Of a stretch of 9,773 nucleotides of DNA, positions 1-6,539 are shown in pieces (position 1 is the first letter of the stretch; every line of letters starts with the position of its first letter). Both the position numbers and the translations under genes were made by a program. The stretch is from the IMG/VR virus record IMGVR_UViG_2541047698_000005, one strand, 5' to 3'. The notes beneath the pieces were generated by a model. That model saw only the letters and a program-made list of their open reading frames with translations. It was not told where the DNA came from and did not search any database. Source of the stretch: a virus (Duplodnaviria > Heunggongvirae > Uroviricota > Caudoviricetes).

Positions 1-113
1 GGATGATGTCGCTGTTGCTGACAGTGGTAATACGTTGACGGGGCAATATGCAGTTCGCTGCATAGCGGTCCGACCCCGTACTGCTCACGCAGCTTATCCA
101 GCAGTGGCATCAT
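1..113 (-). CDS. IS3-family transposase OrfB (DDE catalytic subunit), N-terminal fragment truncated by the window edge
   Basis: Hand translation of the minus strand in the -1 frame relative to orfA gives [37 protein letters not shown]..., which I recognise as a typical IS3-family OrfB N-terminus. It overlaps the orfA stop at the A6 slippery site. Confidence 0.7.
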
Positions 114-436
114 TTTTTCCAGAGGCGGTCGAACTCCGCCTTCGCAAAATAAGCGGAAGCCTGGCGAAGGATATCGTTACTGCGGCGCAGTTCACGATTT
201 TCACGTTCCAGCTCTTTCAGACGCTGACGTTCAGCGGTGGTGAGCCCTCCATCACCGCCCCCGGTATCCCGCTCATGCTGGCGAACCCAGACACGCAGAG
301 TCTCCGGCGTACAGCCAATCTTTGGAGCAATGGAACAAATTGTCGCCCATTGTGAGTCATATTCGCTCTGACTTTCCAGAACCATACGGACTGCCCGTTG
401 ACGGACTTCGGGGGAAAAACGAGTATTTTTAGTCAT
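110..436 (-). CDS. IS3-family transposase OrfA (HTH DNA-binding subunit), 108 aa
   Basis: The ORF track protein [22 protein letters not shown]...[36 protein letters not shown] has a helix-turn-helix followed by a leucine-zipper-like segment, typical of IS3-family OrfA. It ends at an A6 slippery run (plus-strand T-run 113..118) where the -1 frameshift into orfB occurs in this family. Confidence 0.88.
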
Positions 437-490
437 CCTGTTTACCTCTTTCTCAGGAAGTTTAGTCTCCAGGATTCCCGGGGCGGTTCA

Positions 491-682
491 GGACTTCAGC
501 ATCGCAACAGCTTAAGTGCGCAGCTCAACATGAAATGTCATGAGTTTGACCAGAAGAAAGACATGGCGAGCTTCTGCGGACAAGGGCTGGCAGCATGGCG
601 CTATACGAAGCCAGTGTTGGTCGCTGAGATTAACTCCCTGGCTAACCAGCTGCAGATTACGATCCCCGGGCTTCCGGGATGA
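491..682 (+). pseudogene. 3' portion of an uncharacterised gene immediately abutting the IS terminus (likely IS-disrupted); alternatively an intact 50-aa ORF starting at ATG 531
   Basis: The frame is open from the IS boundary at 490 to the stop at 680..682 (…GLQHRNSLSAQLNMKCHEFDQKKDMASFCGQGLAAWRYTKPVLVAEINSLANQLQITIPGLPG). Its stop overlaps the start of the next ORF in an ATGA motif. The 5' part of ORF-track entry 398..682 lies inside the IS and is not part of the gene. Confidence 0.4.
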
Positions 683-936
683 GTGATCGTGTTATTGAAT
701 GCGCCTCCAGAGCGGGGCGCGACTTCTCAGAGTTCATGAAAGGCGAGAAGGGCATGATGGAAGCATTGGCCTCGGTGGATGAGTTTGGCGAGCAGCTGCG
801 CCTCAACGGCTGTGTCAATCATCACTTTGTTAGCTACATGATGCGGAACTCGATCATGCAGGCATTCATGGACATGGCAAAAGCCGAGAGGAAAGAAGAG
901 CGCCGGCGTAAGCGAGCGGAAGCAAAAGCGAAGTAG
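679..936 (+). CDS. Hypothetical protein, 85 aa, with a strongly basic Lys/Arg/Glu-rich C-terminal tail
   Basis: ORF MSDRVIECASRAGRDFSEFMKGEKGMMEALASVDEFGEQLRLNGCVNHHFVSYMMRNSIMQAFMDMAKAERKEERRRKRAEAKAK. The start overlaps the stop of the upstream frame (ATGA at 679..682), suggesting translational coupling. An alternative internal start is the ATGATG at M26/M27, preceded by a GAGAAGGG Shine-Dalgarno-like motif. No family recognised. Confidence 0.5.
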   Translation: MSDRVIECASRAGRDFSEFMKGEKGMMEALASVDEFGEQLRLNGCVNHHFVSYMMRNSIMQAFMDMAKAERKEERRRKRAEAKAK

Positions 937-1222
937 CCATTACAAAGCCTATCTACGGGTGGGCTTGATAATGGCTTATACCCTACACGGGATAACTTAA
1001 CTGATATCCCTTTTAAAGGATAAAGGTATTCAAGCCTGACACATCATGCGCTGTATCGTCGCCGTGTTCCCGTATTAACAGAGACCGTAGCCCGACGGGG
1101 AACTCCTTCTGCGCGAGTGTGCGGGAATAATCAAAAACGATGCACACCGGGGTTACCGGGTACACATATTTCATCATGCCAGCGAGTCCGGTTCTGGCAC
1201 GGAAGAAACCGGACGTTATGAT

Positions 1223-1633
1223 TTAGTGCGGAAATATTTGTGTAGTGTTCTGAATGTTCTCAGTAAAGAGTAATGAATTATCAAAGGTATAGTAATACCT
1301 TTTGTTTTCGTGGATATTTGTAATCCATCTGAAAACCCCTGCTGTAGCAAGATTTTTCCTGTATTCGTAAAATGATAACTCTCCTGATTTGAATCCTTTT
1401 AAGGTGGCTTCTATAAGGCATTTATTTTTTGAAAATCTTACATTTACAACCTTACCCTGTCCTTTTATTAAAACCGTATTATCGTTTTCAAGAACAAGAT
1501 GAATATTCTCTGTGGCTAAATAGTAAATGTAATGTGAGACATTGTGACGTTTTAGTTCAGAATAAAACCAGTGATAGTTTAAATTATTTCGCACTTTATC
1601 GAATATTTGTTTAAAAATGGCAACCTGAGCCAT
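1223..1633 (-). CDS. Prophage accessory protein, YbcV/YdfO-like (DUF1398-type, assignment from memory), 136 aa; strongly AT-rich gene
   Basis: Long minus-strand ORF in a visibly AT-rich block that contrasts with the GC-rich head genes. The preferred start is the second Met (ATG at 1633..1631 on the minus strand), which is preceded by GGAAGGT at 6-nt spacing; the first Met (1648) has no Shine-Dalgarno motif. The size (136 aa) and the position next to a ylcI-like gene near cos match the ybcV/ydfO arrangement I recall from E. coli K-12 DLP12 and Qin prophages. Confidence 0.7.
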
Positions 1634-1690
1634 TGTAGTACCTTCCATGTGATATGAGGGGGCGTAGTCTGCACGATTATCTAGATTGCT

Positions 1691-1924
1691 TCAATCTGGT
1701 CTAACCTGTTTTCTGAGCAATTCAGTAATGTCACTCTTTTCTTTGTTTGCTTCAGGCGAAACTCTTTTTTCTGAGCACAGTCTCCGGCGGCAGGCTTCAA
1801 TGACCCAGGCTGAGAAATTCCCGGACCCTTTTTGAACAAGAGCGATGTTAATTTGTTCAATCATTTGGTTAGGAAAGCGGATGTTGCGGGTTGTTGTTCT
1901 GCGGGTTCTGTTCTTCGTTGACAT
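1691..1924 (-). CDS. YlcI/YnfO-family small protein (DUF3950-like) with a predicted ribbon-helix-helix DNA-binding fold, 77 aa
   Basis: ORF MSTKNRTRRTTTRNIRFPNQMIEQINIALVQKGSGNFSAWVIEACRRRL... The pattern of a basic N-terminal arm, a short beta-strand (RNIRF), helix (NQMIEQINIAL), Gly-rich turn (GSGNFS) and second helix (AWVIEACRRRL) fits a CopG/Arc-type RHH. It sits immediately upstream of cos/Nu1, as ylcI does upstream of nohD in DLP12 (from memory). It is co-directional with the DUF1398-like gene, 43 bp away. Confidence 0.7.
   Translation of the reverse strand: MSTKNRTRRTTTRNIRFPNQMIEQINIALVQKGSGNFSAWVIEACRRRLCSEKRVSPEANKEKSDITELLRKQVRPD

Positions 1925-2832: not shown

Positions 2833-2858
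<26 letters not shown>
2313..2858 (+). CDS. nu1: Terminase small subunit gpNu1 (winged-HTH cosB-binding protein), 181 aa
   Basis: The ORF MEVNKKQLADIFGASIRTIQNWQEQGMPVLRGGGKGNEVLYDSAAVIKWYAE... is essentially the lambda Nu1 sequence as I recall it. It lies directly downstream of cosB and overlaps the start of A. Confidence 0.95.

Positions 2859-6539
<3,681 letters not shown>

Follow-up and report, generated by a model that had tools for sequence, protein, structure and literature searches.

Two small genes lie next to the cos site of a lambda-type phage genome, and the question they raise is whether they work together as one module or are independent occupants of the same slot. The window analyzed here, a stretch of 9,773 nucleotides, belongs to a lambda-type phage or prophage and covers its right end, cos site and head-gene region, as judged from profile matches and alignments. 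An initial annotation of this DNA had placed two co-directional minus-strand genes there, and both open reading frames are indeed present: a ylcI/ynfO-type gene encoding 77 amino acids (positions 1691–1924) and, downstream of it, a DUF1398 gene of the YdfO/YbcV/lambda gp78 type encoding 136 amino acids (positions 1223–1633). We consider the best explanation, with a probability of about 0.6, to be that these are two independent accessory genes in a variable lysis/packaging slot, encoded antisense to the late operon.

A prophage of E. coli ST3 matches the window at 99.9% identity from position 490 onward, and positions 1000–2320 are identical to phage PhiR49_1; the phage looks intact. On the head side the gene order is Nu1 (2313–2858), A (2833–4758), W, portal, protease/scaffold, D and E. 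The plus-strand Nu1 gene encodes the small terminase (PF07471, E = 6e-100) and is divergent from ylcI, at a distance that is constant at 389 bp in most lambda-type loci. The 12-nt cohesive-end sequence of cosN, GGGCGGCGACCT, was located on the plus strand at 2124–2135 by a match to the lambda left end. It is followed by the Nu1-binding repeats of cosB at about 2176–2288; the identity of cosN and of the R sites at 2176–2288 is what we take from the established picture of the lambda left end. The gene pair lies immediately to the left of cosN and is thus cos-proximal. In lambda, this region belongs to the pR' late transcription unit; hence both genes are antisense to late transcription, like bor.

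The identity of both genes is established. The earlier expectation that HMM searches would return DUF3950 and DUF1398 was correct, as both families were matched above their curated cutoffs. The 136-aa protein matches PF07166 (DUF1398) with E = 3e-43 and 147 bits (cutoff 22) over profile positions 1–119 of 119, and it matches PDB entry 2HH8, the NMR structure of YdfO, with E = 3e-67 over residues 1–135 at ~80% identity. That structure is built of two alpha-beta3 halves. The halves of the DUF1398 protein align weakly with each other (hhalign P = 0.005), which fits what is presumably an internal duplication in the YdfO fold. For the DUF1398 protein, an alignment of 18 sequences gave AF2 a poor model (pLDDT 48), and the fold is therefore assigned by homology to 2HH8; a Foldseek search with this model retrieved only 2HH8, via sequence (TM 0.39), among noise, and yielded no structural lead to a function. 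The sequence of the protein contains no N-terminal hydrophobic stretch or signal sequence, and nothing thus supports the older names “envelope protein” and “head protein”. The family is small, with 189 clusters at E ≤ 0.001 among 1.84 billion representatives, mostly fragments. The window copy is a distinct allele, found at an identity of at least 99% in ~1,060 E. coli records.

The DUF1398 reading frame is open up to an ATG at 1648, which would yield 141 amino acids. No Shine-Dalgarno motif accompanies that codon, and GGAAGG (1641–1646) sits 7 nt 5' of the ATG at 1633; because only the latter start has such a motif, the 136-aa start is right. The start of ylcI has a weak motif, AGGG only. The 43-bp gap given in the initial annotation needs amendment: the spacer is 57 bp to the 136-aa start, or 42 bp to the 141-aa reading frame.

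The 77-aa product of ylcI matches PF13132 (DUF3950) with E = 2e-20 and 72.8 bits (cutoff 25) and the NCBIfam model YlcI_YnfO_N (NF041551) with 35.2 bits (cutoff 30); it also corresponds to phrog_949. Three regions can be discerned in the protein: a basic N-terminal arm, a core of residues ~13–50 (1775–1924) and a variable C-terminal tail (1691–1774). The arm is very basic (MSTKNRTRRTTTR) and leads into NIRFP. AF2 predicts helices at residues 19–32 and 34–53 with a break at G33 (pLDDT ~83), together with a helix at 63–72 in the C-terminal extension of the 77-aa form; the strand region, residues 13–18, is coil in the monomer model. The spacing of the N-x-R-x-P ... G ... S motif is that of P22 Arc, and hhalign places YlcI in register with Arc, with a P value of 0.027 only. 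Of the earlier proposal that this is a ribbon-helix-helix (RHH) protein with a basic arm, the arm stands, and the predicted helices and the Arc-register motif agree with the fold; a significant sequence-profile or fold match of YlcI to a known RHH protein was not found. We regard the RHH fold as the likely one for the YlcI core, an assignment that is statistically not established.

Judged from their substitution patterns, both reading frames are real coding genes, and purifying selection acts on each of them, as the initial annotation had supposed for the pair. When ylcI copies from lambda, DLP12, Qin, a Stx2a phage and IMG/VR contigs are compared, the first 50 codons show a dN/dS of 0.02–0.11. 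One comparison of the core gave 12 synonymous versus 2 non-synonymous changes; the most distant copy, that of the Stx2a phage, gave 17 versus 9. Between the DLP12 and Qin copies there are zero non-synonymous changes, and both of these prophages are cryptic and packaging-dead. The 50-residue core of YlcI is almost invariant, whereas the tail varies by lineage. For DUF1398, copies from phages, K-12 prophages and IMG/VR contigs gave a dN/dS of 0.18–0.36. The two genes also differ in composition: GC content is 31.4% in the DUF1398 gene (GC3 30.7%), 44.4% in ylcI, 52% in Nu1 and 54% in the window as a whole. The earlier description of the DUF1398 gene as markedly AT-rich, and the suggestion that it was acquired horizontally, are supported.

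The pair itself is already known. It is annotated as YnfO/YdfO-type and is present in thousands of genomes, including lambda and most E. coli. The parallels with the K-12 pairs ylcI/ybcV and ynfO/ydfO that had been drawn earlier proved to be real. In the Qin prophage, ynfO and ydfO (b4533–b1549) are of the same families as the window genes, in the same order, on the same strand and with the same 57-bp spacer, and they adjoin the Nu1-type gene nohA just as the window pair adjoins Nu1. The YlcI cores of the window and Qin are 96–98% identical and the DUF1398 proteins ~76–80%; the window differs in its distinct DUF1398 allele and in belonging to an intact-looking phage. In DLP12, the opposite-strand gene ybcW, which is absent from the window, splits ybcV from ylcI. 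Lambda has the DLP12 arrangement in its lysis-cos slot, where gp78 (lambdap78) is the DUF1398 protein. In RefSeq, gp78 is labeled “head protein” and begins at a GTG that lies 41 codons too far 5', and an intact 64-aa YlcI-type reading frame of lambda, at 48109–48303, is unannotated in NC_001416. Alignment of the window with lambda yields one block, that of DUF1398, at 1047–1707 (83% identity) and another, from ylcI to cos, at 1762–2123 (95%); lambda has ~0.6 kb extra between them, with the opposite-strand gp79/ybcW. The homology break falls between 1707 and 1762, within the 3' end of ylcI, and hence the YlcI family consists of an almost invariant core with a variable tail. Lambda and DLP12 also differ from the window in the YlcI tail (their protein has 64 aa) and in bor, which they have downstream and the window lacks.

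The boundaries of the DUF1398 unit are established by comparison of these same loci. The unit common to the window, Qin, lambda and DLP12 begins ~75 bp 5' of the ATG, with its 5' edge exactly at a GGTyAGACC box (1698–1706). This GGT-N3-ACC box, GGTTAGACC, lies in a minus-strand leader (1634–1710) that also contains the GGAAGG at 1641–1646. A promoter scan found a weak sigma-70-like site in the leader, TAGACC (1698–1703)/GATAAT (1676–1681), which overlaps the box; the spacing of this promoter-like site is not kept in lambda. At the other end, directly after the stop codon, is a minus-strand hairpin (GTCCGGTT...AACCGGAC, 1186–1214) that has no U-run. The hairpin is kept in lambda, DLP12 and Qin, the last with one compensatory change of T-A to C-G, and its fold energy is ordinary (z −1.6). 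We would suggest only tentatively that it is a 3' end or stability element. Both boundaries are common to the adjacent and the split architectures. In K-12, boxes homologous to that of the leader, upstream of ybcV and ydfO, are PdhR gSELEX peaks, and ybcV mRNA is down 10-fold in a pdhR mutant (PMC7660256). Given these PdhR data, and because leader and hairpin travel with the gene, the DUF1398 unit looks like a self-contained cassette with a putative promoter and terminator and with host-dependent expression. The cassette is present, absent or replaced among related loci. It thus combines the deviant composition and the presence/absence in related phages by which morons are recognized.

One peculiarity of this junction deserves comment. 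The stop codon of ylcI, TGA (1691–1693), is in frame with the DUF1398 reading frame, and the databases contain the “fusion” proteins P0010 and P0014. We considered and rejected a read-through fusion of ylcI and DUF1398. In lambda, the leader is read in another frame, and its sequence is not kept at the peptide level; the open frame is thus coincidental, and P0010 and P0014 are accordingly stop-codon or sequencing variants.

If the two genes were partners, they should be found together. A tblastn census of 50,697 phage records detected the YlcI core in 153 records and DUF1398 in 43, and ~110 of the 153 YlcI-bearing records had no DUF1398. The YlcI-only excess consists mainly of Stx-converting phages. 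In the Stx2a phage WGPS6, a lone DUF3950 gene lies between a KilA-N gene pair and HNH-terS-terL, that is, beside a different packaging system. Further, capsid-forming satellites of Enterobacter (cf-PICIs) list genes of the YlcI/YnfO family (PMC13612085). Among 80 IMG/VR loci fetched via the YlcI core, ~15 have no DUF1398 within 2.6–4 kb; their slot instead holds bor, a PerC-like gene or a ybcW-like gene along with cold-shock-type genes, or leads straight into the lysis genes. Of the complete E. coli genomes (5,426), 4,162 contain the ylcI core and 3,011 a full-length phage-type DUF1398; 2,173 have the adjacent junction and 1,363 the split ybcV-ybcW-ylcI form. Seen from the other side, 105 loci with a phage-type DUF1398, a highly redundant sample, have ylcI upstream in 104 cases, adjacent in 83 and split off by ~705 bp in 21. 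The pairing is one-sided and loose. The near-constant presence of ylcI upstream of phage DUF1398 may speak for a functional link instead of a common insertion slot. Matches in contigs of unrelated species (Flavobacterium, Cohnella, Pseudomonas and others) were set aside as mostly contamination by lambda control DNA and are uninformative on host range.

These counts bear directly on the reading offered in the initial annotation, a type II toxin-antitoxin or autoregulated defence operon. Such a module, whether toxin-antitoxin or abortive-infection, would use the RHH protein as an antitoxin that autoregulates and whose C-terminal tail neutralizes a DUF1398 toxin. It is easy to see the attraction of this proposal: a small RHH-like gene is followed, after a short spacer, by a larger co-directional gene, the weak structural matches of the YlcI model are mostly RHH antitoxins (ParD, MazE, RelB), the 77-aa YlcI has an extra C-terminal helix as antitoxins do, and phage-type DUF1398 nearly always has ylcI upstream. 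However, most YlcI-bearing phage records do without DUF1398, and relatives of DUF1398 stand singly, without YlcI, at host loci in several genera. In lambda and DLP12, moreover, the genes are ~0.6–0.7 kb apart and the YlcI tail is replaced, yet DUF1398 in these split arrangements is intact and still under purifying selection (dN/dS 0.12–0.2). Searches of both proteins against Pfam, NCBIfam and PADLOC returned no known family of toxins, nucleases or defence proteins; in PADLOC-DB 2.0, there was no significant match for either, only chance-level ones (E 0.02 or weaker). A literature search found no toxicity report for either gene. The initial annotation had also held that its proposal would fall if the two genes failed to co-occur outside this lineage, and essentially no such co-occurrence was found. 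Since the pairing is neither obligate nor tight, the toxin-antitoxin or defence reading is unsupported; we regard it as very improbable and the resemblance of the layout to a toxin-antitoxin operon as superficial.

The chromosomal relatives of DUF1398 point elsewhere. In nearly all E. coli, ycgX is a lone DUF1398 gene downstream of bluR, and stand-alone chromosomal DUF1398 genes also occur in Pseudocitrobacter, in Kluyvera (near icd) and in Klebsiella/Raoultella-type genomes. Their neighbors include icd, dinI, cold-shock, MerR-type and GGDEF genes. YcgX and its relatives share Pfam family and length with the window protein at 25–44% identity; unlike the window gene, they have a host context with neither a YlcI partner nor phage genes. 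Indeed, tblastn and family-HMM searches detected no YlcI relative near the stand-alone loci. Two distant DUF1398 members were also scanned against viral contigs, with no hits; both are chromosomal, not viral. Given stand-alone relatives such as YcgX, the phage-borne DUF1398 protein would most likely be a modulator of host physiology.

These host copies also weigh on a second alternative, in which DUF1398 is a single-gene superinfection-exclusion or anti-phage effector acting in the lysogen and YlcI is a mere neighbor. The gene does sit in a moron slot antisense to the late genes, near the position of bor in lambda, and it is AT-rich, dispensable for lytic growth and widespread in E. coli prophages. 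On the other hand, orthologue-like chromosomal copies at a conserved host locus suggest a cellular role, and PADLOC returned no significant match. The literature search found no phage-resistance phenotype for DUF1398, apart from one unexplained gene loss in a resistant mutant. An exclusion function is, in our estimation, unlikely.

A third alternative assigns YlcI to the phage itself: YlcI might bind near cos or the terminase genes and modulate packaging or late transcription, with DUF1398 as unrelated cargo. The nearly invariant 200 bp between ylcI and cosN, the constant position of the gene by the terminase genes of two packaging systems, its listing in terminase-carrying satellites and the very strong constraint on its core would all suit a packaging role. 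Yet ylcI is transcribed against the late operon, it shows no non-synonymous change between the packaging-dead DLP12 and Qin, its transcripts occur in K-12, which produces no phage, and the upstream DNA in the Stx phage is unrelated, so that no shared binding site is evident. We therefore consider such a role rather doubtful.

The initial annotation had proposed expression independent of the late operon, which agrees both with the bor-like antisense placement and with reports from K-12, in which ylcI of the cryptic prophage is transcribed and, with ybcW, forms overlapping convergent transcripts in most RNA-seq sets (PMC12288877). Lambda gp78 is non-essential by CRISPRi, with plating efficiencies of 1.9 and 1.3 (PMC10695390), and ydfO is strongly and transiently induced by ionic liquid (PMC4077768). 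The last-named paper also states that over-expression of YdfO confers oxidative-stress resistance; we reject this statement as a mix-up with YfdO of CPS-53, as the paper cited for it never mentions ydfO. In BL21(DE3), ybcV/ybcW rise more than 1000-fold after expression of T4 MotB (PMC7827196). We do not accept this rise as relief from H-NS, because the late genes of lambda DE3 rose too and cross-mapping is possible. The literature search found no function assigned to any member of the YlcI or DUF1398 families, in agreement with the earlier statement that the pair has none.

How might two independent accessory genes operate in this slot? The YlcI/YnfO-type gene would be its constant element, in lambda, in Stx phages with a different terminase and in capsid-forming satellites. 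It most likely encodes a dimeric RHH regulator of transcription of the Arc/Mnt kind that would bind DNA, and the obvious candidate target is its own promoter region next to cos. There, 70–100 bp upstream of ylcI, lies a 13-nt inverted repeat with a 7-nt spacer (ATCAATTAATACG/CGTCATAATTGAT, 1994–2026), a candidate operator, and a palindrome follows at 2072–2088. The repeat is unchanged in every lambda-type cos phage of the alignment, but so, very nearly, is the entire 200-bp stretch as far as cosN, and conservation does not single the repeat out. A promoter scan found no consensus sigma-70 promoter upstream of ylcI, and an Rfam scan of 900–2400 gave nothing real. The DUF1398 gene would be an AT-rich swap-in cassette, inserted downstream of ylcI in some lineages, that brings its own leader, GGT-N3-ACC box, good ribosome-binding site and 3' hairpin; each gene would have its own promoter. 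The DUF1398 product, probably a soluble protein of YdfO-like alpha+beta fold, would most likely modulate the physiology of the lysogenic host under host control, possibly to the lysogen's benefit, rather than poison the cell. A bolder version of this scheme can be imagined, in which YlcI is a lysogen-expressed RHH regulator of the slot cargo or of late/packaging genes and DUF1398/YcgX is a connector that rewires host stress responses or signalling, or blocks phages; we offer it as speculation, unlikely as it stands.

Both genes have parallels in well-studied phages. The P22 RHH repressors Arc and Mnt (immI) have their genes within the late region, as YlcI does, and regulate an accessory gene. 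YlcI also resembles them as a small phage protein with a basic arm, the N-x-R-x-P strand motif and the G...S turn spacing; it differs in showing no significant sequence or fold match and in lacking an antirepressor gene as a constant neighbor. DUF1398, for its part, is comparable to the lambdoid morons bor and lom, which are also dispensable, deviant in composition, independent of the late operon in orientation or regulation and polymorphic for presence and absence between related phages. The products of bor and lom, however, are outer-membrane proteins with known phenotypes, whereas the DUF1398 protein has no signal sequence.

The sequence evidence adds no new type of system, and its main value lies in redirecting experiments. 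The two genes are better studied separately, YlcI as a DNA-binding regulator and DUF1398, together with ycgX, as a host-physiology factor, and not as a toxin-antitoxin pair. Were a function to be assigned, it would close one of the last gaps in the lambda gene map, and ylcI, ynfO, ybcV and ydfO, along with ycgX, would leave the list of uncharacterized genes of E. coli.

The DUF1398 ORF shares its reading frame with the TGA stop codon of ylcI (1691-1693), and no further stop codons occur across 1634-1690. Two "fusion" proteins in the databases (P0010 and P0014) read through this TGA. We judged the open frame to be coincidental, and ylcI-DUF1398 read-through was rejected, because lambda reads the leader upstream of the DUF1398 start codon in a different frame.

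An intact 64-aa YlcI/YnfO-family ORF beside cos (complement of 48109-48303, corresponding to 1810-2004 of the lambda locus L249) is missing from the RefSeq annotation (NC_001416.1). In the same record, the DUF1398 protein gp78 is labelled "head protein" and is given a GTG start that precedes the conserved Met by 41 codons. Further, lambda right-end DNA is present in assemblies of Flavobacterium, Pedobacter, Cohnella and Pseudomonas, as well as in an Arcanobacterium "plasmid" and a "Campylobacter phage" record (L094-L122, the fetched loci concerned). These sequences in unrelated species are often contigs of ~3.5 kb, and they appear to be sequencing-control contamination. The literature also contains a confusion of names: higher oxidative-stress resistance has been credited to YdfO over-expression (PMC4077768), with PMC3105296 cited as the source, but the latter reports YfdO (CPS-53), not YdfO.

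Downstream of the DUF1398 gene, a 54-aa ORF without a family match (1013-1177, minus strand) falls within a region homologous to the lambda gp78-bor spacer. Lambda homology stops at position 1047, and bor is not present in this phage. The left end of the window (1-489) is the end of an IS1203-like element of the IS3 family, including its orfA (110-436, minus strand). At ~490, this element breaks a KilA-N gene that other strains, E. coli ST3 among them, carry whole; the exact junction is absent from all complete E. coli genomes of our collection. The interrupted gene lies upstream of an 85-aa phrog_875 gene (679-936, plus strand). In the Stx2a phage WGPS6 (L240), phrog_875 and its KilA-N partner are again paired; there they directly adjoin the DUF3950 gene, to which they are convergent.

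Toward cos, a perfect 8+8 palindrome, ATGATAAT T ATTATCAT (2072-2088), lies ~35-50 bp to the left of cosN and is kept, with small changes, across all of the lambda-type loci aligned.

The ybcW homolog lambdap79, which in lambda lies between gp78 and the YlcI-type ORF, is absent from the window. This gene was scored as essential by CRISPRi (PMC10695390), whereas deletions show that it is non-essential. A roadblock to the late transcript that crosses the lambdap79 region toward cos and Nu1 would explain the apparent essentiality of the gene despite its dispensability in deletions.
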